A stretch of DNA of 64,000 nucleotides from a virus: positions 1 through 64,000 of IMG/VR virus record IMGVR_UViG_3300045988_088152. One strand, written 5' to 3'. The notes below the pieces were generated by a model. That model saw nothing but the letters and a program-made list of their open reading frames with translations, was not told the DNA's origin and did no database searches. This document shows positions 3-63,436 of the stretch, piece after piece; positions within the stretch are counted from its first letter, which is position 1; the number at the start of each line of letters is the position of its first letter. The position numbers and the translations under genes are program-made.

Positions 3-419
3 GGCAAATGGTTTGGCGGTTATGCAAATGGCGTAAAAACTAAACTTGGGACTATCCGAAATTATACTGATGAAGCTATTCGCAATATTAGAAAACAAGC
101 ATTTGAACTGAAAGGAATTGCGTTTGAATGTAGAGATTTCATTCGATACACGCTAGATGATGCAAACAATATGGTTATCTATTGTGACCCTCCCTACCGC
201 GATACTACTAAATATGCTACGTCTGACTTTCCGTATGAAAAATTTTATGCTTGGTGCAAAGAGATGGCTAAAACCAATATTGTTCTGATTAGTGAATATT
301 GGATGCCAGAGGACGGATTTGAATGTATCTGGGAAGGCAAACTGAAATGCACATTGGACAAGGCAAGCCGTACAACTAAAACAGAAAAATTGTATAGGTG
401 TATTCCATGCAAACAGTAA
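3..419 (+). CDS. DNA N6-adenine methyltransferase (Dam/D12-class-like), 5' end cut by the window edge
   Basis: The frame is open from nt 3. It contains the catalytic motif DPPY (..MVIYCDPPYRDTT..) and ends in TAA at 417-419. Confidence 0.7.
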   Translation, partial: GKWFGGYANGVKTKLGTIRNYTDEAIRNIRKQAFELKGIAFECRDFIRYTLDDANNMVIYCDPPYRDTTKYATSDFPYEKFYAWCKEMAKTNIVLISEYWMPEDGFECIWEGKLKCTLDKASRTTKTEKLYRCIPCKQ

Positions 420-3400
420 AATTAACCCCAATGCGCATGATATTCAATAACCCTGAATCCAATTTTTCAATTATATCATGCAGCACTAAGGATGAAACAA
501 TAGAAACACATCCTAAATATGGCACAATCAGCCTAAAAGGAACAGGCATTGCTGATCTAAAGATAGAGCAATCCATTGATTGTATCATAGAGCCATGTAA
601 GGATGATAAATATAAGTATAGTTATAAATTCATTGGCTTTGCTGGATTTGTAGCCAAAGATGGCAAATTTGAGCTAACAGAAAAAGCCGAACTACAGACA
701 TTGCGCAGCTTAATGACCAATGGACAAGCTGAATCATGTCATGCCGCATATCCTCATTTTGTCAGTATGGTGTTGAACGGTGAAGCCGACAAGCTGGACT
801 ACAAAAAAATTCGTGGCGTAGGCAAGGTGCTATTGCCAAGATATATTGACAAAATCAAAACAATCAACAAGCGTGTTGAATTTATGGGAGAAACATATGC
901 TTGGGGCATTGAGCATGATGAGGATATAAATAAAATTGCAGCGACATATAAGAATATATATGGATTCAGCAAGGATATAAATACCAATCCATATGCTGTT
1001 ATGATTAACTTGCTTGAGTGGTCATTTGATAGGGCTGATAGAGCAATAACCAAAAAAACAGTAAAATGGTTGGATAGCTATGAACGATGCGAGGCGGCTA
1101 CTATCTATGCCCTAAAGCATAATGAACTGGACGGCAATACAAGGATGCAAGCCAAGGCATTATTTGATGTGGTCAAGCACAAAGCCCCTCAATGCGTTCA
1201 TCATCTCCTCGATGTTGTGACGAAAGCGGCGCAAGTACACTATGACGCGCCTAGCCAAAATACGTCTCTACAAGCCACATATAGCGCCGAACAGCATATT
1301 GCTGATGTCATCAAGAAAAAAATAGCCAATCCACATTACTATCCTATGGATTGGCAGAAGTTTACAAATGTAGACGGATTAGAGCTGACTGATGAACAGG
1401 CGCGGATTCTTGAGATGGCTTGTAAGCAGGATGTGATGATGTTGACTGGATCGGCTGGTTGTGTTGATTGTGATACTGAATTTTTTACTGGCGCTGGTTG
1501 GAAGCGAATTGCTGATTATCAAAACGGTGATATGGTTCTTCAGTACAACGAGGATGGAACGGCAGAGCTTGTAAGTCCTATTGCTTATATCAAGAAGCCA
1601 TGCGATACACTGTGGCATATGGAAACAAAGTATGGTGTTGATATGACTGTATGCGACGAACACAGAATTATTTATTGGTCGCAAAAAGGACATCAACATG
1701 AATGCACTATTCAAGATGTTATCGATAAGCAAAAAGGCAATGGATGGGCAGGGCAATTCGCCACATCGTTTGGTTATAGCGGCATAGGCATTAGCTTGAC
1801 TGATGAGCAAATTCGTGTCATGTGTGCCGTTATTTGTGATGGATCATTTTACAGTCGTGCGTCAAACTCAAATAGATGTCGATTCCATATTAAAAAATAT
1901 CGTAAAAAAGAACGTCTCAAAAAGCTATTTGATGAAGCTGGTATTGAATATACAGAGGTGCAGTCTGCGGCTGAAGGATATAAAGATTTTTATATCCGAG
2001 CCCCTATCAGAACCAAGATATTCGATGATATGTGGTATCAATGTAATTCACATCAGCTACAAGTTATCTGCGATGAAATTATTTTTTGGGACGGCTCTGT
2101 AAATATCAGTAAAGGCGGGGTTGAACGAAAGAGATTTTCTGCGAACGTTAAAGAAAATGCCGATTTCGTTCAGTTTGCTTTTACCACTTGTGGTTATAGA
2201 GCCTCAATCTCATCAAGAAATAGAAGCGGGCAGAAATATTTTACTTGTGGGAAGTGGTATACGAGAAAAAGCGTTGAGTACGATGTAATCATTACTTCGC
2301 GTAATATGGTTGGTATTTGTTGCGATAACAGACAAAACCATAAAAAAACAATGCCGATTCAAGTTCCAACAATAGATGGCTATAAGTATTGTTTTACTGT
2401 TCCTTCACATATGCTCGTTCTAAGACGTAATGGTAATATTTTTATCACCGGTAACTGCGGTAAAACAGCTGCTACAAAAGCCGTAGTTGAGATGCTAGAA
2501 GCCAATAATTATACTTATACCCTCTTATCCCCAACTGGAATTGCGGCAAAGAGGCTAAGAGAAGCAACAGGGCGTGAAGCAAGCACGATTCATATGTTCT
2601 TGACTTGTGGCGATAATCTTGGTGACTATGTGCTAATTGACGAGATGAGCATGGTTAGCGTCCATTTGTTATCAATGCTATTTGACAAAGTAACAGACAG
2701 TACCAAGATAATCTTCATAGCTGACCCATCTCAGCTTGCATCTATTGCTTGTGGCAACATTGTTGAGGATATGCTTGATAGCGGCATAGTGACTGTATGC
2801 AACTTGACTAAGGTGTTCAGATACAACACGTCTGGCATTATTACAATAGCTACTGATGTACGAAATGGAGCAAATGACCATCTGACAGATACTTTCACAG
2901 ATTATAAGTTCATTGAAACTGATACATTAGTAATCAAGCAAATTGAACAAGAGTATGCGCGGCTCTTAGCAGATGGATATAGTAAGGATGATGTGCTGAT
3001 TCTATCTCCATTCAATAAGGGTGAGGTTGGCTCATTGGCTATCAATGCGGCAATTCAAGCCAAATTCAATCCAAATGAATTAAGCAAGGTTGAGCATACT
3101 GTCAATGATACACCTATTTATTTCAAAGTAGGCGATAAGGTAATCAATAAAAAGAATGAATATGCTATGCCGCTTGTTGATGATGATACGGCTTTTGTGG
3201 CTAATGGCGATATTGGCACGGTGATGGAAATTGTACCTGATGAAAAAGAGCCATATATGATTGTGCGATATGATTGCGGCGATTGCATAGTAGATAAGGC
3301 GCATATCAAGAATACACTATTGGCATATGCGATTTCTATTCATAGTTGCCAAGGTAGCCAAGCAAAGGCTGTGATTGCGGTGATTGATAGAAGTCATGTA

Positions 3401-3553
3401 AGGATGTTAAGTCGTAATTTGTGCTATACAGCGGTATCACGTGCACAAGAGCGGTTAATATTGATTGGAGATGAGGCGGCTATTCAAGAGGGATTGAAAG
3501 TACAAGAGGAGAAGGAAAGAGATACTGAATTAAAGGAGATGCTGATTAAATGA
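398..3553 (+). CDS. SF1 RecD/Dda-like DNA helicase precursor interrupted by an intein
   Basis: The Walker A motif is split: LTGSAG|C..intein..N|CGKT. Downstream motifs include DEMSMV, and the C-terminus has SIHSCQGSQ..CYTAVSRAQERL. The start could be GTG 398 or ATG 407, which follows a GGTG ribosome-binding site. Confidence 0.8.
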   Translation: MYSMQTVKLTPMRMIFNNPESNFSIISCSTKDETIETHPKYGTISLKGTGIADLKIEQSIDCIIEPCKDDKYKYSYKFIGFAGFVAKDGKFELTEKAELQTLRSLMTNGQAESCHAAYPHFVSMVLNGEADKLDYKKIRGVGKVLLPRYIDKIKTINKRVEFMGETYAWGIEHDEDINKIAATYKNIYGFSKDINTNPYAVMINLLEWSFDRADRAITKKTVKWLDSYERCEAATIYALKHNELDGNTRMQAKALFDVVKHKAPQCVHHLLDVVTKAAQVHYDAPSQNTSLQATYSAEQHIADVIKKKIANPHYYPMDWQKFTNVDGLELTDEQARILEMACKQDVMMLTGSAGCVDCDTEFFTGAGWKRIADYQNGDMVLQYNEDGTAELVSPIAYIKKPCDTLWHMETKYGVDMTVCDEHRIIYWSQKGHQHECTIQDVIDKQKGNGWAGQFATSFGYSGIGISLTDEQIRVMCAVICDGSFYSRASNSNRCRFHIKKYRKKERLKKLFDEAGIEYTEVQSAAEGYKDFYIRAPIRTKIFDDMWYQCNSHQLQVICDEIIFWDGSVNISKGGVERKRFSANVKENADFVQFAFTTCGYRASISSRNRSGQKYFTCGKWYTRKSVEYDVIITSRNMVGICCDNRQNHKKTMPIQVPTIDGYKYCFTVPSHMLVLRRNGNIFITGNCGKTAATKAVVEMLEANNYTYTLLSPTGIAAKRLREATGREASTIHMFLTCGDNLGDYVLIDEMSMVSVHLLSMLFDKVTDSTKIIFIADPSQLASIACGNIVEDMLDSGIVTVCNLTKVFRYNTSGIITIATDVRNGANDHLTDTFTDYKFIETDTLVIKQIEQEYARLLADGYSKDDVLILSPFNKGEVGSLAINAAIQAKFNPNELSKVEHTVNDTPIYFKVGDKVINKKNEYAMPLVDDDTAFVANGDIGTVMEIVPDEKEPYMIVRYDCGDCIVDKAHIKNTLLAYAISIHSCQGSQAKAVIAVIDRSHVRMLSRNLCYTAVSRAQERLILIGDEAAIQEGLKVQEEKERDTELKEMLIK
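1460..2455 (+). mobile_element. Intein (332 aa) with a LAGLIDADG homing-endonuclease domain, inserted in the helicase P-loop
   Basis: It begins with Cys1 (CVDCDTEF) and has block B ..TVCDEH... Two dodecapeptide motifs are present (AVICDGSF, IIFWDGSV). It ends ..NGNIFITGN followed by the +1 Cys. Removing it restores GSAGCGKT. Confidence 0.8.
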
Positions 3554-8089: not shown

Positions 8090-8713
8090 TTGCCTAGTGT
8101 ATCTAATGTTCGTGTATATGCACTAAATGATTCCATTAGAGCGGCTAAGTATCCAAAGGCGGTTGAGCTTGACGGCTTGACCGCCGAGCTTACTAAGGGT
8201 ATTTTGGCTTGCTTGAATTGCCCAACGGGTGAAGGGCATGATAATGCTCTAAATGGAATTATTGTCCAATTTGACCTTACATTTAGTCAAAAGGCATGGG
8301 TAGAATTGCAAAGATACCACTTCATGGATTTCGTCTCATCTTGCTCTACAATGCACAAACTACAAAATATGAACCCCAGATTGCAATGCAATCGTTATGT
8401 AGATCCTAGAGCTATTGATATTCTACAAGAAAAGATAGACCGCTACAATTGGCTAGTTGCCATGAATAAAAAGCCAGAATATAGTATCAATCCAGATGAA
8501 ATAAAAGAAGCGCGGCTTGAGATGCTATATAATATCCCTAGCGGGTTTGAGCTTACAGCTGCAATGACCACAAATTATAGGCAGCTTAAAACAATCTATC
8601 AACAAAGACGGTCTCACGCCCTTACTGATTGGCAGGTGTTCTGTGATTTTTGCGAGACGCTACCACGATTCCTAGAATTAACACAGAGAGGATATGAACC
8701 AAATGAAGATTAA
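8090..8713 (+). CDS. ThyX-fold (flavin-dependent thymidylate synthase-like) protein with a degenerate active-site signature
   Basis: TTG start after GAGGAGG. GHDNALNGIIVQFDLTF..W..LQRYHF..SSCSTMH aligns to ThyX GHE..FEH..F.F....W..RHR..S..SGRY. IPSG..T..TTNYRQL..RRSHA aligns to LP..T..T.N.R.L..R.DSHAQ. Confidence 0.6.
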   Translation: MPSVSNVRVYALNDSIRAAKYPKAVELDGLTAELTKGILACLNCPTGEGHDNALNGIIVQFDLTFSQKAWVELQRYHFMDFVSSCSTMHKLQNMNPRLQCNRYVDPRAIDILQEKIDRYNWLVAMNKKPEYSINPDEIKEARLEMLYNIPSGFELTAAMTTNYRQLKTIYQQRRSHALTDWQVFCDFCETLPRFLELTQRGYEPNED

Positions 8714-40839: not shown

Positions 40840-41077
40840 ATTTCGCCCTCCTTTCTTTGTTTTATTGTTTATATATTAGAGCAGTTAGATTATGGACTTC
40901 ATTAACGTATGCCAAAGTTCATTGAGCTACTTATCCTCCCTATCCGCTCGTTTTATATTTTTGAGTGTTTTTATTTTCGGCTTTTGACTAAGCCTAAGTT
41001 GGAACTTGGATTCCACACAACCCTAATAGTACCTCCACGACAACACACCAACATAGTAGCCGCTTCATAGGCAAATA

Positions 41078-42922
41078 TCAATAGACTAATTGAATGGAGT
41101 CTATATCAAACTCATCTTCTTGCAACTGTTGTTGCCATGCGTTCTCAATCAAATCAATAATATAGTTACCATACATGATAGTCACAATTCTATCCTTTGT
41201 TCCTGTGCGCGGTTCTTCCAATTTGATTTTATCCTGCTTGATAACCGTCTTTAGATTAACTGCCTCTATAACCATCATATCAGTTTGACCATACGGCTCA
41301 AGCTGATTAGCTAATTCTTCAGCAGTGTATTGATAATATTCTCCACTATCTGTTAGCTCGTTCTGATAGTCTTGCATAGAAATAAGAAATTTCATATTGT
41401 TAGTTTCAAGCTGTTTGCGTAATGACAACCAACCACTACTGTTTAATTCAGGTGTCGCAATAACAGGTATTAAGCAAGGTACTGCGTTCTTATCAACCGT
41501 TCTACTATGATAATCGTCAACTTTAGCTTGAGATACTACTTGGTATTTATCAGCAAGCCCAAATCCACGAGAATCCCATCTTGAGCCTAAATCTGGACGT
41601 AGTAATGGTTCTGTCAAATGATTAAATATGACTTCTCCACCACTTCTTCCATCGAATGCGGCATAATCAGCGTCATAGACCCACCATAAATATCTAAATC
41701 TATCAGACGCGCCTATTGTATCAGAAGCATCATGCCCCTCTATATAGTCAACGTGTCGTTCAAATCTATTCTTTTTGCTATTCCAATGCGCCGACATTAA
41801 CGTTATAATGGTATTGTCGTTTTTTGTGCAACCAGTGGTGTTCGCAAAAGCAATATCCATGACTACTAACCGTATCTCGTCCTCTTTCTTTTCTGGAAAG
41901 TCAGGTTGTTCACCAGCAAAAAATTGTAATGCAGTGGGCGGACGGAAACAATGCTCAATGATTTGATTCTCTTTGAAAGATTTTAGATTAAAGAACGCAT
42001 CATCGCCCTCTGAAATCATCTCGTTCAAATCTTCCATTCTAAAGTCCATTTCGCCGCCAGCCTTACCATTCCAATAATCAGCCCACGTCTTAAAACCATT
42101 ATCAATAGCCATAAATATATCACCGGCAAAAATATTACATCTTACTTTGGTGTCGGTAAATATACGAGTAAATGTCTTTTTGAATAATAGCCAAAACCAC
42201 TCAAACTTATATCTAGCAGATGTGATATATATATGTTGACATTCCTCTTTCCAACGTGGATTATTACCATATACAGGATTACTAAGATATTTGGCTTGCC
42301 TTGGATGCGCCATCTTCTCAAAGACGGAATCAACCATGCCTTTTTTCAACAAGCGGGCTTCTTCATATGTAAGAATTGTTGCTCTTGGGCCACGAGAGCT
42401 ATCTTGACACGGTAATACACGCAAAGTAGAACCGTTAAGCTTGTTCTCTATTCTATAACCATCTTCTGGTTTAGTAATAACCAAATATTCATGCTCATAC
42501 ATATATAAGAGATATGGCGATAATTTTTTAATCAATTCATCCCTTATTTTATCTTCAACCATCTTGTTTGCCTGTGCAACAGTTGATGATGTAATTACCG
42601 CCTCTGTGTAAGGATAAAGATTCATCTTTACAATATTGCCTAGACCCACAATGAAGGTTTTGGATAAGCCACGACAACATATTGCAAAAAATACATCGGA
42701 TATGCCCATCAGATATATCATTATCATCTGAAATGGGCGCAACTTAATACCAAGAACTAAATCAACATATATATGCCAATTCCGGCGTAACTAGAATAAA
42801 GTCAGCCACTCTATAGCATTTTCCTCTTTCTTTGCATCTTTCATTGCGTTTTCTTTTGCTTTTGCCGTAATTAGGTGGTTTCCAAGGAACTTGCGTCTCA
42901 AGCCCCCCATCTGACTTTTCAT
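41078..42922 (-). CDS. terL: terminase large subunit containing an in-frame TAG at codon 44 (42791-42793)
   Basis: P-loop-like CCRGLSKT preceded by GIKLRPFQ. ATG 42922 has a ribosome-binding site (GGGTGGTGA) 17 nt after the upstream stop. The downstream TTG 42742 has no ribosome-binding site. The reading frame is continuous except for the TAG. Confidence 0.65.
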
Positions 42923-42938
42923 TCTATATCACCACCCA

Positions 42939-46787: not shown

Positions 46788-49361
46788 CTACTGTTTTAAC
46801 ATGTCTCCCGTGCGGACAGGTGGAGCTTCACGCGATTCAGTACGCCGCTGATTATCCGCCTTCTTATAGCATTCCTCTGAGCAATAATGCTGACATACAT
46901 CGCGCGGCTTGAATCGCTTGCCGCAAATGGGACAAATTGGATTGAGTTGCGCCGTATTGATTCTCAAATTTTCTACAATCGTCCAACCAAAACAAGCCCA
47001 CAGCATTTTCTTATTACTTGATTTTTTGACCGTATATAAATAAGCAACTAAGCTATTAACCACAACATCTAGCGGCTCATTGCTATACTCCACTATATCT
47101 TGTGTTATGCGGCGATATTTATACAAATCGTCTTCATTGATATGTGGGTCATCGCCATAATCGAATCGGCGCTGATTCCATATCCACCAATTATACCTCT
47201 CTATGATTGGTGAATTTTCTCTAGTGGTATAATCAACTGATTTATTTATCAGCATCGTCCAGTCAAATTTTCCAATCTTGTTATTATAGCGGATTCTGGA
47301 AGCAGGGATTTTTGTCGATATACGATTCATTGTGGAATTGTTAGGAGGTTCTACTTGGGTATCTGGGTCTTTGTCTTTGGCATATTGAAAGAAATTTGGA
47401 ACACGAGCTTTTGTATATTGCTTGATAGTGTTATTGATTTGTTTCGGTCGTTCTGGCAGCCATTGCGTCTTAGCGCAATCTATAACAGCGTTGTTCTCGA
47501 AACAAAGCCATTTTACTACATCTAGCTCTTCTTGTGTGATTTCGCCACTGTTCCATATTTTTGTAATATTGTTACTAACCGGTCCTATATTGCCTTTAGT
47601 ATAAGCATTGACCATTCCATTATACATGCTGTCTGGATTTAATAAGCCGCCCTTAGCTTTTTTGAGGTCATATGCTAGAGGAACTATATCTTGCATATTG
47701 TGTTTGGCGCAACTTGTCAACGTTCTATCTTTTACTACTAGAGCCTTATCCCCATCTACGTCAAACATAAGGTAACGTGAAATAAGGTCGTGGCAACTAG
47801 TATATATACACTTAGTTCCACCAAACCAATAATCAAGCTCTAAGTTGCGCCGATTCGTCCTAATTGCCCATTCTCGATATAGGTGCGGCGAACGTAAGCA
47901 AGCCAATGTTTCTTCGTCTCGATATTGATTTGTATATACATCGCCATCTGCAAGCAGTCCTTGTGGGTTTTGTTGTCCTAAAAATAACCATTCGCAAAAC
48001 GCATATAGATCGGGCGCTAAGAATAGATATTTTCCATTTACTCTAAGCCGCCCACCTTTGGCTTGTTTAACTAGGCTTTTTTTAGTCTGTTTCAAAATTT
48101 CTCGGTTATATGAATCTTTGAACAGCTCAGGATATATCAGCAACGCCTCTTGCATAGCTGATTTATACCGGTTATTCTCTGTTGCGCCAAGTAGCCTCAT
48201 AGTAACTTGATAATCATTACCAACATCATCAATCTCTTGCGCCGTCTTAGAGATGATGCGGTCAATCTCATTATCTGTCATATCGCTCAATGTCTGCAAC
48301 ATCTGATAGTTGATGCGGCTCTTTGGAATATAAGGCTCCTCTATATTGCAATAACAAGCATTGCATCCAAAATTTTTGAATCGCGCCTTATAGCAATCCC
48401 ACGAATCATAAAATTTCCATAGCTTGAATTGGCTCTTTGTGAATATATACCGTATATCTTCCTCTATAATTTTATGCTCATTTCCATAAATATCTGTTAC
48501 AGTTGTCTCCCCACCACATTTCTCTTTGATAAACTTGTCAAATGGAAATGTAACAAGCAATCCCTTTACCCATGGCATACGTACCATTCTTGTTGTTTCA
48601 TCAAGCATAATACCGCATCCGTCCATATGAGGAATAACCGTATTTGTCATCTCGCGTTTAATTTCATACGTAACACCATCAATATGGTCAACCAATCCCG
48701 GAACAGCCGTTTCCCAATCATCTACCACAATTGATTTGTCAATGTCAAAATCTTGCCAAACATCTGTAGCAGAGTTCATAAGCGCCAAATAAGCAAGGAA
48801 CTTGTTTTGATTCATGCCTCCCCGCTCATTGATTTCATCTATGGTCAAGCCGCACATCAATTTTTGCTCAATGCGCTTAAACGACGATTCTTTGACAAAT
48901 ACAGCTCTTTTCGTTCTTATCTGTCCTGCTGATGCAGTAAGGAACACATATTTTTCACCATTGTAAATAAATCCTTGACGAACTAGATTATTAAATACTT
49001 GAAAGAAAAATACGTTGATAATGAACAGCTCATCTGTCAATTTGAATGGCTCAAGACCTAAGCTGCGTGTTAAATCGGATTCAAATAGATTAACAACCGT
49101 CTTATCTGTCACAGCATCTTGTCGCAATTCTCTAGTTACGTTTCGATTTACTGCATCATCAAGCAATTCAGATAACCGTGCCTTTTCTTTTTTGAGTAAA
49201 CGATTTACCGACTTGATGCGCCAATCTGGCTTTCCGTCATCCTTCCATCGCTTACGCAACGAATATAACCGAACGAGCCGAGTATGTAATATCATTTCGT
49301 TATCGTCATAAAATGCGCTAGTATCTATTGAATGCAAATAAATTTGCGTCTGTAGGCTCAA
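46788..49361 (-). CDS. YonO-like single-subunit RNA polymerase (two-barrel, beta'-like catalytic motif)
   Basis: LRSPHLYREW..(36 aa)..MFDVDGDKALVV parallels beta' NRAPTLHRLG..NADFDGDQMAVH. A C-terminal zinc ribbon CPICG..C..C is present. TTG start after AGAGGTGA. It is followed by HU-like genes, as with yonO-yonN in SPbeta. Confidence 0.6.
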   Translation of the reverse strand: MSLQTQIYLHSIDTSAFYDDNEMILHTRLVRLYSLRKRWKDDGKPDWRIKSVNRLLKKEKARLSELLDDAVNRNVTRELRQDAVTDKTVVNLFESDLTRSLGLEPFKLTDELFIINVFFFQVFNNLVRQGFIYNGEKYVFLTASAGQIRTKRAVFVKESSFKRIEQKLMCGLTIDEINERGGMNQNKFLAYLALMNSATDVWQDFDIDKSIVVDDWETAVPGLVDHIDGVTYEIKREMTNTVIPHMDGCGIMLDETTRMVRMPWVKGLLVTFPFDKFIKEKCGGETTVTDIYGNEHKIIEEDIRYIFTKSQFKLWKFYDSWDCYKARFKNFGCNACYCNIEEPYIPKSRINYQMLQTLSDMTDNEIDRIISKTAQEIDDVGNDYQVTMRLLGATENNRYKSAMQEALLIYPELFKDSYNREILKQTKKSLVKQAKGGRLRVNGKYLFLAPDLYAFCEWLFLGQQNPQGLLADGDVYTNQYRDEETLACLRSPHLYREWAIRTNRRNLELDYWFGGTKCIYTSCHDLISRYLMFDVDGDKALVVKDRTLTSCAKHNMQDIVPLAYDLKKAKGGLLNPDSMYNGMVNAYTKGNIGPVSNNITKIWNSGEITQEELDVVKWLCFENNAVIDCAKTQWLPERPKQINNTIKQYTKARVPNFFQYAKDKDPDTQVEPPNNSTMNRISTKIPASRIRYNNKIGKFDWTMLINKSVDYTTRENSPIIERYNWWIWNQRRFDYGDDPHINEDDLYKYRRITQDIVEYSNEPLDVVVNSLVAYLYTVKKSSNKKMLWACFGWTIVENLRINTAQLNPICPICGKRFKPRDVCQHYCSEECYKKADNQRRTESREAPPVRTGDMLKQ

Positions 49362-60198: not shown

Positions 60199-60936
60199 AT
60201 GAAAAATGAAATTCGATATATGATTGCAGGAATTGGATTGGCATTAGTTGGGCTTGCTGCTTGTGGCGGATTTGTCTATACGCAAATTCAAGAATACAAT
60301 TCAATGATGGAGCAACGAGCCGTAGAGTCTAAGCCGGTTGTCAAATGGATTAAATGTGAGCCGATTGAGACAACCAAAATTGAATATCAGAAAGATGATG
60401 ATGTAGTCATTATAGAGACTATAAAAACCGATATCGAACCAGAGCCTCAGACTGAAGAACAGGAATCAGAATCTACTATTGCATATGAGCCGCCATTTCA
60501 TCTTACTGAATATGAAACATGGTTTGTTAACTGTGTGGTGGCCGGTGAAGCCGCTGGTGAACCATATGAAGGCAAAGTAGCTGTTGCTCAGTGCTATTTT
60601 GATGCTATGCTCAAGGACGGCTTGTCTGCTATAGAAGTAAAATCGGCATATGGATATAGCGGTTGGAATGAAAATCTGGATAAGCAAGACCCCAAAGCAT
60701 ATGATGAAGTTAAAAATGCTGTGATGGACGTGTTCTATGGCGGCAAATTTGTAACCGATAAGCCGATTCTATATTTCTACAATCCTGCATATGGTCGTAG
60801 TGATTGGCATGAAGCTCAGGAATATTGGGAAAGCATCGCTAATCATAAGTTCTTTTATCTTGCTGAAGATGAAAATGCAGAATGGACAAATATCCTCTTG
60901 ACAAAGGTAAACGAATATGGTATAATTGAACCGTAG
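60199..60936 (+). CDS. SleB/CwlJ-family cell-wall hydrolase with a lipoprotein-type signal peptide
   Basis: ATG follows an AAGGAGA ribosome-binding site. The signal peptide is MIAGIGLALVGLAAC|GG (lipobox). The hydrolase motif VVAGEAAGEPYEGKVAVAQ is present. Confidence 0.6.
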   Translation: MKNEIRYMIAGIGLALVGLAACGGFVYTQIQEYNSMMEQRAVESKPVVKWIKCEPIETTKIEYQKDDDVVIIETIKTDIEPEPQTEEQESESTIAYEPPFHLTEYETWFVNCVVAGEAAGEPYEGKVAVAQCYFDAMLKDGLSAIEVKSAYGYSGWNENLDKQDPKAYDEVKNAVMDVFYGGKFVTDKPILYFYNPAYGRSDWHEAQEYWESIANHKFFYLAEDENAEWTNILLTKVNEYGIIEP

Positions 60937-60946
60937 GTGATAATAT

Positions 60947-61522
60947 ATGTATGTACTTTATAACCAAAAATACTATCTCATGCAGAATGCAATTAAGCAA
61001 TTTGTTCCAACGCCCGAATTAAACGAGTCGTTTCAATTCATCGATAAAACCAAAGCCGAAAATGCGCTTGCTAATCTACCAAAGCAAATGCGCAATCTGG
61101 GTTATTTTGTGCAACAAATTGATGCACCATCTAAATCCGTCGATTTCGACCAGTTTACAAATGTAGAGCTAGTTGATTATGATTCAGCATTAGAGCAAAT
61201 TGGCTCATTCTGCGATCTACACGACCATCTTGTAGCAAGAGCGCCATGGATAGATAATAAATTGACCGAGGTAGAGAATAAAATTCAAGACGTGCTTCAT
61301 GCCATTGAATTTAATTCATATAATGCTAGAGATGGATATAAGATATATAAGTTGCTACATGATTTACGGCTCGAACGGCGCAAATATAAAGATGAGCAAA
61401 TTATAGCGGATGTGATGAAAAGTGGTTTTGCTGGTTCAAATTGGGAATTGGCTAGGACTAGAGTAGACGATTTGAAAGATAGACAATATCATGTTAGAGA
61501 AATGGAGGAGCTGTTTGAATGA
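60947..61522 (+). CDS. hypothetical protein
   Basis: ORF within the operon. Confidence 0.45.
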   Translation: MYVLYNQKYYLMQNAIKQFVPTPELNESFQFIDKTKAENALANLPKQMRNLGYFVQQIDAPSKSVDFDQFTNVELVDYDSALEQIGSFCDLHDHLVARAPWIDNKLTEVENKIQDVLHAIEFNSYNARDGYKIYKLLHDLRLERRKYKDEQIIADVMKSGFAGSNWELARTRVDDLKDRQYHVREMEELFE

Positions 61523-61740
61523 GTAAGTATAGACCGGGAACTTTAGAGTATATTCGTTGGGAATGTAATTGGATGGTTGAGCATCTTACTTATAGGTCAA
61601 GTCATGCAATCGATGAGCTTGAAAGAGTTAGAGCGAAAATGGCACTTGAAGAATACAAAAAGATTGTATCGGCTTGTGATAAGCTAATTGGATTGAGAAC
61701 AAACGATGGATTTATGGGATGCTATAGAGATAACGAATAA
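61519..61740 (+). CDS. hypothetical protein
   Basis: Start is ATGA-coupled to the upstream gene. Confidence 0.45.
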   Translation: MSKYRPGTLEYIRWECNWMVEHLTYRSSHAIDELERVRAKMALEEYKKIVSACDKLIGLRTNDGFMGCYRDNE

Positions 61741-61753
61741 AGGAGCTACTTAA

Positions 61754-62176
61754 ATGATTGAAACAAGAATTTATAAATGTGAATATTGCGGCGCAGAATT
61801 TGATGATGAGTATGAGGCGCATTGCCATGAGTATGTGTGTCAGTATGAAGATGTAAAGAAGTATAAAGGAAGTTGTCTTGCCTTTTACAATGATGACGGT
61901 GAAAGAATCAAATTTAATGCACAGACTGTATATGATGAACTAGGTAATGTAGCTGCATTTACAGTTGGTAATGATGACGATGTAAAATTTATTATTGGAT
62001 TGCTTGGTTGGGCTGGATATGATAATCCATTTAGACTTATTGAAGATGAGGCGAATCCAAACTACTATGGTCTGTGGTGGTTTGATGCTGATTTGCATTG
62101 TGGTGAATGGGTGCGAGTTGATGACCAGATTAAAAAGTGGACGGATATTAAAAATAAATTTGAAAAAGATACTTGA
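61754..62176 (+). CDS. hypothetical protein with an N-terminal C2HC zinc knuckle
   Basis: It has CEYCG..HCHEYVC and an AAGGAG ribosome-binding site. Confidence 0.45.
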   Translation: MIETRIYKCEYCGAEFDDEYEAHCHEYVCQYEDVKKYKGSCLAFYNDDGERIKFNAQTVYDELGNVAAFTVGNDDDVKFIIGLLGWAGYDNPFRLIEDEANPNYYGLWWFDADLHCGEWVRVDDQIKKWTDIKNKFEKDT

Positions 62177-62201
62177 CAAATTAAATTCTATATGGTATAA
62201 T
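62173..62201 (+). promoter_or_regulatory. sigmaA-type promoter TTGACA-17-TATAAT (extended -10 TGG)
   Basis: aCTTGACAAATT..aTGgTATAAT. Confidence 0.6.
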
Positions 62202-62232
62202 CCAATTATCAAATGAATGGAGGCAATAAGAT

Positions 62233-62574
62233 ATGGGGTTAGATATTAGAATTTATCAAATGAGGCCAGTTTGTTGTCCTCATTGTGGTGAATTGGTTAC
62301 ATATAAGGTGGTTGATGCCGTTGACGGCTCTGGTAGCGTATGGTACGAATTTCTTGCATCGGTTGGCTACTATAAGCCATATATAAAAGGGCAACAATAT
62401 AATCAAGATATGTATGGTATGGACATGACGTTGACCAATGAACAGGTGAACGAGTTGTCTAAATTTGTGGATAAGACAGAGTTAAAGGACTGGTATTATA
62501 TTACAGAGGTTAAAGACTTGATACAATCGGTTCGTATTGATGGCGATAAAATTGTAATCAATGCAGATTGGTGA
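62233..62574 (+). CDS. hypothetical protein with a CPHCG zinc-ribbon start
   Basis: GGAGG ribosome-binding site. Confidence 0.45.
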   Translation: MGLDIRIYQMRPVCCPHCGELVTYKVVDAVDGSGSVWYEFLASVGYYKPYIKGQQYNQDMYGMDMTLTNEQVNELSKFVDKTELKDWYYITEVKDLIQSVRIDGDKIVINADW

Positions 62575-62590
62575 GGATGAGGATTAGCAT

Positions 62591-62746
62591 ATGCTTAACA
62601 CCTATTTTAAAATTGGCGATTTCATTTGCCATGTTGACTGCTATGATAGAGAAACTGGACTATGGGGATATAGATGTGATGAAATCCCAATTCTCAATGG
62701 TTGGGCTTGTGAAAAATTTATTGAAATGAATAAAATTTGTTCTTGA
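62591..62746 (+). CDS. hypothetical 51-aa Cys-rich protein
   Basis: Not in the ORF track. GAGGATGAGGA ribosome-binding region. The protein is MLNTYFKIGDFICHVDCYDRETGLWGYRCDE... Confidence 0.35.
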   Translation: MLNTYFKIGDFICHVDCYDRETGLWGYRCDEIPILNGWACEKFIEMNKICS

Positions 62747-62771
62747 CAAATAGCTAATTGTGTGATATAAT
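62743..62771 (+). promoter_or_regulatory. sigmaA-type promoter TTGACA-17-TATAAT (extended -10)
   Basis: tCTTGACAAATAGctaattgtgTGaTATAAT. Confidence 0.6.
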
Positions 62772-62802
62772 ATAATTACCAAATGAAAGGATAGTAAATA
62801 TT

Positions 62803-63006
62803 ATGGACAAGAAATTGGTTAAGTTCATAGAAAGTGCATACGAGACGGCATTATTGTGTAACGACAAAACTGACGCAAAGTTTTATATGCATCAAAGTCT
62901 TGGAGCTTGCTGTTACGAATATGAGCGATCTGGGGATATGGATGCAATCAATATCTGGCGTGATGAATGGCGAGAAAAATTTGAAAAAATAATTCTTGAC
63001 AAATAG
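62803..63006 (+). CDS. hypothetical protein
   Basis: AAAGGA ribosome-binding site. It stops at a TAG that lies inside the next promoter. Confidence 0.45.
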   Translation: MDKKLVKFIESAYETALLCNDKTDAKFYMHQSLGACCYEYERSGDMDAINIWRDEWREKFEKIILDK

Positions 63007-63024
63007 TACCTCTTATGGTATAAT
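62996..63024 (+). promoter_or_regulatory. sigmaA-type promoter TTGACA-17-TATAAT driving the tRNA-like/leader transcript
   Basis: tCTTGACAAATAGtacctcttaTGgTATAAT. Confidence 0.6.
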
Positions 63025-63124
63025 ACAGATGTGGTTGAGAGATTGGGCAACCTCAATTACAGTTCTTCATTGTGAACCTCCTAGAATATAGTCCTGAGCA
63101 TGACGATAAAAGGCTCAGCAAAAA

Positions 63125-63217
63125 TGGCGGTGTCGGTTAATGGTAAGCCAGCTGGCCTATACCCAGTTTAGTCCTAGATTGGGGCAAAATCAGAGTTCGA
63201 CCCTCTGCGCCGCTACC
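63125..63217 (+). tRNA. class-II (long variable arm) tRNA-like gene with encoded CCA and an atypical anticodon loop CCUAUAC
   Basis: Acceptor stem GGCGGUG/CGCCGCU. D arm GGUU-AAUGGUA-AGCC. Anticodon stem GCUGG/CCAGU. A 23-nt variable region contains a GUCC/GGGC stem. T arm CAGAG-UUCGACC-CUCUG. It ends A73 then CCA. Confidence 0.6.
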
Positions 63218-63436
63218 AAGGTGATCGCAGTTAAAGCAATTTCAGTTAACACCTAAACAAACAGTTGAAATTGCGGGTTATGATTGTATGAGCCAAAAAT
63301 CAATTCGTTCAGAAATCAATCGTTAACTGACCACAATTCACCTATGAGTGTATAAAGTAGGGACCAAATTTTAAGGAAACCGTTTATAAGGCACTAGATA
63401 GTAATAAACGGAACCAATTATCAATGAGGTGATAAT

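Follow-up and report, generated by a model that had tools for sequence, protein, structure and literature searches.

Reading of the Ile codon AUA is a long-standing decoding problem, in that a transfer RNA (tRNA) with U34, such as tRNA-Ile(UAU), is charged poorly by the isoleucyl-tRNA synthetase (IleRS) of Escherichia coli unless W905 of the enzyme is replaced by Arg, and tends to misread AUG on the ribosomes of this species (PMC3575796). For this reason, cells depend on lysidine or agmatidine, or else on specialized synthetases and ribosomes. The gene described here is a phage tRNA gene with the anticodon UAU, located at 63126–63218 on the + strand of a 64,000-nucleotide (nt) stretch of viral DNA (the window; positions 1 to 64,000 of the IMG/VR virus record IMGVR_UViG_3300045988_088152). 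It is a real, conserved, and covarying tRNA, and it belongs to an apparently undescribed phage family in which the anticodon UAU is combined with an extra arm whose loop is centred on GAU. Taken as a whole, the gene is best explained as, and probably is, a functional, early-expressed elongator tRNA-Ile of this GAU-bearing family that decodes AUA and has derived bases C33 and C38; the most conservative reading still leaves a well-defined tRNA family.

Several known tRNAs resemble the window tRNA in part. A class-I tRNA-Ile(UAU) is found in a few bacteria, shares UAU, A37, and A73 with the window tRNA, and reads AUA with no need for lysidine or TilS; for both tRNAs, IleRS must accept U34 and misreading of AUG must be avoided (PMC3575796, PMC3919564). 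This tRNA has a short variable loop and U33, and the adaptation resides in IleRS (Arg at the W905 position) and in the ribosome, whereas the phage tRNA carries an extra 15-nt GAU hairpin and, in the phage group of the window, C33 and C38. The nematode nev-tRNA-Ile(UAU) likewise combines an extra arm with UAU outside the Leu, Ser, and Tyr identities of class II, but nev-tRNAs are derived from tRNA-Leu and charged with Leu (PMC3333845). In contrast to nev-tRNA, the phage family has a class-I-type D arm, a 7-nt loop with GAU, a 3′ flank of 5 nt, and ATA codons that evolve as Ile codons. Bacterial allo-tRNA(UAU) species, which come from metagenomes and sometimes from phages, also have a long extra arm and UAU (PMC5389517). 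However, allo-tRNAs have 8/4 or 9/3 stems, a long D stem with a tetraloop, G73 or U73, and Ser or Ala identity, whereas the window tRNA has covariation-supported 7/5 stems, a normal D arm (7-nt loop), and A73.

Phage tRNAs that evade nucleases have been proposed or shown for mycobacteriophages facing VapC and for T5 facing PARIS and retron effectors (PMC10264068, PMC11464382, PMC11555353). In these tRNAs the loop differs at positions flanking the anticodon, and the changes of the window group are likewise confined to the anticodon arm, but replacement of U33 by C was not among the reported escape changes that were found. No nuclease is known to target tRNA-Ile(UAU) or tRNA-Ile(LAU). A departure from U33 is rare and otherwise known only in the eukaryotic initiator tRNA-Met (C33) and in Candida tRNA-Ser(CAG) (G33) (Grosjean and Westhof, PMC5041475). 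The former is an initiator and the latter an ambiguous CUG decoder, whereas the phage tRNA is an elongator of bacterial type. The operator of E. coli thrS mRNA contains a mimic of an anticodon arm that binds the synthetase outside the tRNA's own anticodon position; this hairpin, which copies the cognate anticodon loop and recruits the matching synthetase, is in an mRNA and represses translation, whereas a mimic in the phage tRNA would sit in the variable region and promote its own charging. For each of these nearest relatives in kind (class-I tRNA-Ile(UAU), nev-tRNA, allo-tRNA(UAU), and the phage tRNAs with altered loops), the window gene lacks some defining features.

The elements of the tRNA gene are as follows; R1 is the covariance model of the family, which is described below.

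63126–63218, + strand: mature tRNA, 93 nt (ARAGORN; Rfam RF00005, 42.8 bits; R1, 105.1 bits; covariation).
63135–63149, + strand: D arm GGUU-AAUGGUA-AGCC, class-I-like, with a 4-bp stem containing U12·G23 and a 7-nt loop (sequence; two-sided changes in two of the four pairs in alignment A3).
63151–63167, + strand: anticodon arm GCUGG-CCUAUAC-CCAGU (sequence; all five stem pairs compensated).
63168–63190, + strand: variable region, 23 nt, composed of UUA, the extra arm GUCC-UAGAUUG-GGGC (63171–63185), and AAAAU (three of the four stem pairs compensated).
63191–63207, + strand: T arm CAGAG-UUCGACC-CUCUG (sequence; four of the five stem pairs compensated).

The 7-bp acceptor stem (GGCGGUG/CGCCGCU) includes G1·U72 and U6·G67, the discriminator A is at 63215, and CCA is encoded at 63216–63218. 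In the anticodon loop, C33 is at 63157, UAU at 63158–63160, A37 at 63161, and C38 at 63162; GAU of the extra arm occupies 63177–63179. An earlier description of the window made from its letters alone (the sequence-only reading) had proposed a 93-nt cloverleaf at 63125–63217; all of the parts that it described are present, and the coordinates are one base off. It had also suggested scoring the gene with tRNA predictors. ARAGORN accepts it as tRNA-Ile(tat), the sole tRNA called in the window, and the Rfam tRNA model RF00005 scores the region, when searched alone, above its gathering score (29 bits) with E = 7.5e-8; a scan of the whole window with the fast filters of Rfam missed this RF00005 match.

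In bacterial class-II tRNAs, the D stem has 3 bp, the D loop is enlarged, the extra-arm loop has 3–5 nt, and 1–3 unpaired nt follow on the 3′ side. The window tRNA, with an extra-arm loop of 7 nt, a 3′ flank of 5 nt, and a D stem of 4 bp, departs from this pattern. The class-II architecture that had been assigned to it is therefore correct only in that an extra arm exists: the long variable arm is paired, but the D arm is class-I-like, as it is across the family (4-bp stem, 7–8 nt loop). By contrast, the observation that the centred triplet UAU fits no class-II identity (Leu, Ser, or Tyr) extends to every member of the family. The triplet CUA that had been noted one register off, at positions 33–35, is indeed seen, in C33 variants only, and positions 34–36 are UAU. 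Compared with a canonical elongator, the window tRNA has the expected purine at position 37 (A37) and departs from the expected U33.

The minimum-energy fold of the single sequence is not a cloverleaf and is unremarkable in comparison with shuffled sequences (z = −1.65), and the case for the cloverleaf therefore rests on comparative evidence. The minimum-energy fold pairs CCCAGUUUA with UAGAUUGGG in place of the anticodon and extra arms; it was rejected because sequences of a diverged allele (L011 type; L numbers denote the individual related sources) cannot form its helix, whereas the anticodon and extra arms covary. A fold with 8/4 stems, as in allo-tRNAs, was also rejected: the eighth pair that it needs, of U8 with the last base of the T stem, is feasible in the window but impossible in L020, and U8 and A14 are invariant.

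Homologues were sought with exact and degenerate DNA patterns over IMG/VR and metagenome contigs, so that the census is incomplete and biased toward members that share the motifs used. Within it, the same five-helix RNA is present in about 60 viral and metagenome contigs belonging to about 15 lineages. The 93-nt gene was recovered from many IMG/VR and metagenome contigs of the phage group of the window, including the L011-type allele, in which both sides of pairs are changed in the acceptor, anticodon, T, and extra-arm stems. A pattern that left the D arm and the extra-arm loop unfixed found further members in unrelated phages, several of them within large tRNA arrays, and a pattern that left the anticodon unfixed added six more lineages.

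With 14 distinct homologues, RNAalifold returns exactly the five-helix cloverleaf. Standard pairs occupy 98.6% of the pair cells, and two-sided changes are found in 20 of 25 pairs, including those of the extra-arm stem. The covariation score is 0.843, as compared with 0.25 in shuffled alignments, and none of 500 shuffles reaches it; when the partners are slid by 1–3 columns, pairing falls to 33–46%. The acceptor stem is compensated in six of its seven pairs, and both it and the T stem are paired in every sequence. When the covariance model R1, built from the 14 sequences, was searched against 134 sources (133 loci and the window), members of the family scored 80–107 bits and every other tRNA scored at most 51 bits, which makes the family discrete. 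A blastn search of 50,697 GenBank phage records with the window tRNA and two distant members found no member of the family, and a blastn search with the 751-bp locus found no match. Two scans of 185,579 species-representative genomes also found none; both required the exact D-arm sequence of the window group, so that this negative does not extend to cellular members with other D arms. No description of an extra-arm tRNA-Ile(UAU) in phages was found in the searchable, freely accessible literature.

Two features are constant throughout the family. The anticodon is UAU in every member, in all of the roughly 15 lineages, although three of the search patterns left it free. In addition, every member has an extra arm with a covarying, G-C-closed 4-bp stem and a 7-nt loop, preceded by 2–4 nt that end in A and followed by 5 nt of the form R-A-W-A-U. 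The centre of this loop is GAU in all of the lineages recovered by patterns that left the loop free, and the four outer positions vary (UAGAUUG, UCGAUUG, CAGAUAA, UAGAUGA, UAGAUAG, CUGAUUU, CUGAUUA, CUGAUAU, and UAGAUGU). GAU is the anticodon of the major tRNA-Ile. Several of the extra-arm loops differ by one or two changes from CUGAUAU, the anticodon loop of class-I tRNA-Ile(GAU) genes that are located in the same tRNA arrays; In some of these arrays, the anticodon loop of the class-I tRNA-Ile(GAU) gene is matched exactly, or with one change, by the extra-arm loops CUGAUAU and CAGAUAA. Given the 7-nt loop, the A·R mismatch at the base, and the 5-nt tail ending in U48, the extra arm looks like a shortened anticodon arm and not like a variable arm of the Leu, Ser, or Tyr type. 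The sequence-only reading, which described the arms and the 23-nt variable region, made no mention of this invariant GAU, the most unusual feature of the gene.

The set U34, A35, U36, and A37 at 63158–63161 is that of a tRNA reading AUA. At the syntenic position in a sibling phage, L012, there is a 76-nt class-I tRNA(UAU) with the loop CUUAUAA; in another, L013, there is a tRNA-like sequence with the same loop that ARAGORN does not call and that scores only 29 bits with R1, and in a third, L009, there is no tRNA. In a codon alignment of 21 sequences of the large terminase (TerL), ATA co-occurs in columns with ATT (34 of 46 columns) and ATC (21 of 46), and rarely with CTA (6) or TTA (5), whereas CTA and TTA columns co-occur with other Leu codons. 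ATA thus behaves as an Ile codon in these phages. The earlier suggestion that the tRNA is an AUA decoder is accordingly upheld by the invariant UAU, by the class-I tRNA(UAU) at the same locus in a sibling, and by the synonymy of ATA with ATT and ATC. AUA accounts for 22% of Ile codons and for 14.5 per thousand codons; one virion structural gene has none and the portal gene few, whereas it is frequent in several genes, among them the tape measure gene and terL, where it is 17 of 41 Ile codons. We infer that the window tRNA is charged with Ile. The determinants known for IleRS of E. coli are A73, A38, C4-G69, U12·G23, and C29-G41 (PMC9976931); A73 and U12·G23 are present in the window tRNA, and C38, G4-C69, and U29-A41 do not match, although the rules of the host may differ from those of E. 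coli.

C33 is confined to the gut-phage group of the window, and the other lineages of the family have U33. Within the group, a single tRNA body, identical or with at most two base differences outside the anticodon arm, carries the loops CUUAUAA (L021, L027), CCUAUAA (L036), and CCUAUAC (the window type); the L011 type also has CCUAUAC. L021 differs from the C33 allele of the L003 type at six positions, all within the 17 nt of the anticodon arm, with no difference in the remaining 76 nt. The six differences constitute two compensated stem pairs together with U33C and A38C, and the probability that all would fall in the anticodon arm is about 1e-3 by our own arithmetic, in which the six changes count as four independent events that could strike any of the 93 nt at random. 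What sets the window allele apart from these is only a further two substitutions, both in the extra-arm stem. C38 is common elsewhere in the family, but C33 is not. From the comparison of alleles, C33 and C38 are derived, while the rest of the tRNA body has stayed as it was. Of the alleles, that with C33 is the commonest, and it recurs in assemblies from many separate samples, which indicates that it is not a sequencing error and is evidently tolerated.

Few positions of the loop are free to change while the anticodon and A37 stay intact, and 33 and 38 are two of them. The changes were most likely selected for escape from host anticodon-loop nucleases or for limitation of U34·G misreading of AUG. 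With the anticodon arm containing every one of the six differences from the U33 sibling, it is plausible that the C33 tRNA is a variant resistant to anticodon nucleases, as the sequence-only reading had proposed among other options. Anticodon-loop changes that are predicted to block anticodon nucleases occur in other phage tRNAs (PMC10264068). The series CUUAUAA, CCUAUAA, and CCUAUAC on one body provides a natural set for determining what an elongator without U33 is capable of, and could show whether variation in the anticodon loops of phage tRNAs reflects an arms race with host tRNA nucleases.

According to the proposed mechanism, host RNA polymerase would transcribe the tRNA early from the consensus promoter that precedes it, and the tRNA would supply AUA decoding independently of the lysidine-modified tRNA-Ile2 of the host. 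Recognition of G34, A35, and U36 changes the transfer step of IleRS by 10^3- to 10^4-fold (bioRxiv 10.64898/2026.02.03.703510). IleRS needs these bases for catalysis, and at least some bacterial IleRS enzymes charge UAU tRNAs poorly, so that in most hosts a U34 tRNA from a phage would be difficult to charge; a GAU that is invariant, and found only on UAU tRNAs, is most simply a surrogate signal of Ile identity. The extra arm would then mimic the anticodon loop of tRNA-Ile(GAU) and serve as an identity handle for IleRS, a role that we put forward tentatively, as the likeliest one for this arm but with less than even confidence. In such a division of labour, the ribosome would read the UAU arm, IleRS would take its identity signal from GAU in the loop of the extra arm, and the phage would deliver an AUA decoder that needs neither TilS and lysidine nor a specially adapted IleRS. 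On this two-arm scaffold, the gut-phage group would have replaced U33 and A38 by C, and the allele would have spread through many phage genomes. The combination of two anticodon-type arms that divide the labour with the C33/C38 replacement on their scaffold is conceivable, and we regard it with some doubt. If GAU copied into the variable region does solve the charging problem, it would be a new kind of tRNA identity element and a ready-made design for orthogonal or anticodon-independent Ile tRNAs; an extra arm proven to be a synthetase-facing anticodon mimic would make the finding considerably more novel.

A number of points weigh against this mechanism or against Ile identity. On class I synthetases such as IleRS, the variable region of the tRNA tends to point into the solvent, and an arm of 4 bp is too short for the anticodon pocket, unless the docking or stacking of this tRNA is different. 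Positions 2, 6, and 7 of the extra-arm loop, the counterparts of 33, 37, and 38, are not conserved, so that the mimicry is partial. The sibling phage L012 appears to manage with its class-I tRNA(UAU), and charging in that host may therefore be possible without the extra arm. A weaker U-turn is expected with C33, which would further weaken the AUA:UAU pairing, itself already weak. In two lineages (L113 and L118) the discriminator is U73, which is not a known feature of Ile identity, and in the window tRNA the combination of A73, A15-U48, and G18G19 also fits the rules of E. coli leucyl-tRNA synthetase (LeuRS) (PMC9976931).

The last point leads to the alternative that LeuRS charges the tRNA, as it does the nematode nev-tRNA-Ile(UAU), such that Leu would be inserted at AUA by missense recoding or in deliberate proteome ambiguity. 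LeuRS ignores the anticodon, and a long extra arm, A73, the A15-U48 Levitt pair, and G18G19 are identity elements of E. coli tRNA-Leu (PMC9976931); moreover, nematode class-II tRNAs with UAU are charged with Leu only (PMC3333845). We nevertheless consider this unlikely, since the ATA columns of TerL interchange with ATT and ATC and not with CTA and TTA, the D arm is class-I-like and has no A20a, the 5-nt 3′ flank and 7-nt loop are unlike those of tRNA-Leu extra arms, a class-I tRNA(UAU) occupies the same locus in L012, and the invariant GAU would be given no role. A tRNA-shaped decoy or regulator without a function in translation, for example one offering UAU and GAU as bait to a nuclease or toxin that recognizes Ile anticodon loops, is similarly improbable. 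Such a decoy would account for the presence of two Ile-type loops on one RNA, which are otherwise unexplained, and for C33, which almost never occurs in elongator tRNAs (PMC5041475), and most allo-tRNA(UAU) species have indeed been proposed to be inactive in translation (PMC5389517). It would not be expected that the T loop, GG of the D loop, the 7/5 stems, the encoded CCA, and A37 all keep their canonical form throughout the family, that most members of the family have a fully canonical anticodon loop with U33, that members lie in large phage tRNA arrays next to ordinary decoders, or that the same locus is occupied in L012 by a plain tRNA(UAU) and in L013 by a weaker tRNA-like sequence that shares its loop.

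The extra arm might instead be a second working anticodon arm, with two alternative stackings of the molecule by which AUA is read by one arm and AUU and AUC by the other. Most of the extra-arm loops, such as UAGAUUG of the window, have neither U33 nor a purine at position 37, the stem has just 4 bp, and the arrays that hold a family tRNA also hold a normal tRNA-Ile(GAU), which makes this very unlikely despite the 7-nt loop, the closing A·R mismatch that resembles the 26·44 pair, the tail of exactly 5 nt (RAWAU, ending in U48) that resembles a class-I variable loop, and the existence of some fully canonical loops (e.g., CUGAUAU in L073). The sequence-only reading had listed four options for the gene, namely an AUA decoder, a decoy or nuclease-resistant variant, a degenerate tRNA, and a relationship to the in-frame TAG of terL, and had held that the sequence could not decide among them; for most, the comparison with relatives does so. 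A decaying pseudogene or chance cloverleaf, for which the unremarkable, non-cloverleaf single-sequence fold and the non-standard C33 and C38 might speak, is scarcely credible in view of the approximately 60 contigs from many independent assemblies, the compensatory changes, and the Rfam score above the gathering threshold. The idea of an amber suppressor, in which CUA at positions 33–35 of the loop CCUAUAC, one register off, would read through the in-frame TAG of terL, fares no better and is exceedingly improbable. The same TAG is present in phages with the C33 tRNA, with CUUAUAA and no CUA (L021/L054), and with a class-I tRNA (L012/L047), as well as where the site is without a tRNA (L009/L048); in L058 and L059 the sequence is TAT TAG C/G TAT, a +1 frame change that read-through could not repair. 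Furthermore, no real gene of the window other than terL is interrupted by a TAG, and TAG ends 5 of 62 open reading frames (ORFs). The elongator tRNA-Ile that decodes AUA is the reading that we prefer.

The terL TAG itself, which had been reported from the sequence, exists at 42791–42793 on the − strand, in the context CTG ACT TTA TTC TAG TTA CGC CGG AAT TGG (within 42742–42925, − strand), and the residues on both sides of it are homologous to the uninterrupted TerL of the Enterocloster phage PMBT24 and of L060, L061, and L063. Relatives have TTC TAG TTA, TTY TAG TTC, TTC TAG CAA TTC, or TAT TAG C/G TAT, the last with the +1 frame change. In each variant, matching or near-matching codons flank a gap of 3, 4, or 6 nt that starts with TAG, and removal of the gap and the repeated codon restores LTLF|RRNWH or LTLY|RRNWH. 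In the relatives with a 4-nt gap, read-through could not repair the frame. The interruption looks like a short programmed translational hop, in which UAG follows the take-off codon and a landing codon lies beyond the gap, rather than a site of suppression. Short coding gaps have been reported in the terminase gene of the Streptomyces phage Hau3 (PMC10732093). The tRNAs involved in such a hop would be Phe or Tyr tRNAs and not Ile tRNAs, which leaves the tRNA studied here unconnected to the TAG. General recoding of TAG was considered and rejected, as translation with the standard code gives long ORFs and terL alone is interrupted in this way. In the gap that separates the portal gene start (40839) from the end of terL (stop at 41078), 40960–41073 on the − strand matches the Rfam drum RNA RF02958 with 55.9 bits (gathering score, 43).

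Two further elements precede the tRNA.

62996–63024, + strand: promoter of the sigma-70 type, TG-extended TTGACA-17-TATAAT (agreement with the consensus, 12 of 12 positions; kept upstream of the tRNA in related contigs).
63031–63125, + strand: 5′ leader of about 95 nt, from the promoter to the tRNA (start approximate, the transcription start being inferred).

The consensus promoter that had been seen ahead of the tRNA is thus a perfect match. It is one of four perfect 12/12 sigma-70 promoters with TG extensions within 2.1 kb (60898, 62173, 62743, and 62996, in 60898–63024, + strand), a region in which 30 promoter-like sites are observed and 16.8 are expected from shuffled sequences. The + strand block of small, mostly unannotated genes around the tRNA is taken to be the early region. 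Pfam searches with ten proteins, six of which adjoin the tRNA, found no tRNA-related enzyme.

The leader is highly conserved among relatives, even in L013 (4520–4615), where a different tRNA-like gene comes next, and it differs at several positions among the contigs that carry the anticodon-arm variants. A leader peptide, MWLRDWATSITVLHCEPPRI, whose 20-codon ORF ends in AUA-UAG just upstream of the tRNA, was considered as an AUA-sensing attenuator. The ORF is intact in many relatives, but it is broken by a stop or a frame shift in several others, and the idea was therefore dropped. The leader folds no better than shuffled sequences (z = −0.65), nor do the 202 nt downstream of the tRNA (z = −0.84), and Rfam finds nothing in either. 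Directly 3′ of the tRNA, 63219–63436 is a variable cassette site: the window and several relatives have a conserved non-coding module of about 190 nt there, which in others is replaced by a small ORF, another module, or just about 20 nt.

Other unusual tRNA-like genes are found in the relatives. At 1–2 kb past the point corresponding to the window end, siblings have a 77-nt tRNA with the anticodon CAA (Leu), a Leu-like D arm, and a variable loop of only 5 nt (L001, 1740–1816; L003, 5580–5656; L006, 3192–3268; and others). This is a tRNA-Leu without its long arm, the mirror image of a tRNA-Ile that has gained one; other siblings have a normal 85-nt class-II tRNA-Leu(CAA) in its place. A family of tRNA-like sequences of about 74 nt has good acceptor, D, and T arms, an anticodon stem of 3 bp, and no encoded CCA (L002, 12328–12401; L005, 3548–3621; L007, 3075–3148; L018, 6179–6252; L025, 3774–3845), and its "anticodon" varies among relatives (tat, tac, tgt, or aat). 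In L020, a viral contig of 436 kb, a 97-nt tRNA-like gene (8113–8209) adjoins a member of the extra-arm family; its anticodon arm contains about 28 nt of loop or insert, and ARAGORN assigns it the 4-base anticodon taac.

The genome of the window had been called AT-rich, but with about 39% G+C it is only moderately so. Its relatives are contigs of about 90–100 kb from human-gut and other metagenomes. The large terminase is 47% identical to that of phage PMBT24 and shows a more distant kinship to SPbeta-like phages, and the portal, tape measure, and other virion proteins are recognizable in the window. An 857-residue protein (46788–49361, − strand) matches the RNA-dependent RNA polymerase family PF05183 (eukaryote-type) in Pfam; we take it to be a YonO-type RNA polymerase, as in SPbeta. 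A 1051-residue RecD-like helicase (398–3553, + strand) has a weak LAGLIDADG match at residues 479–533, which may mark an intein or an inserted endonuclease.

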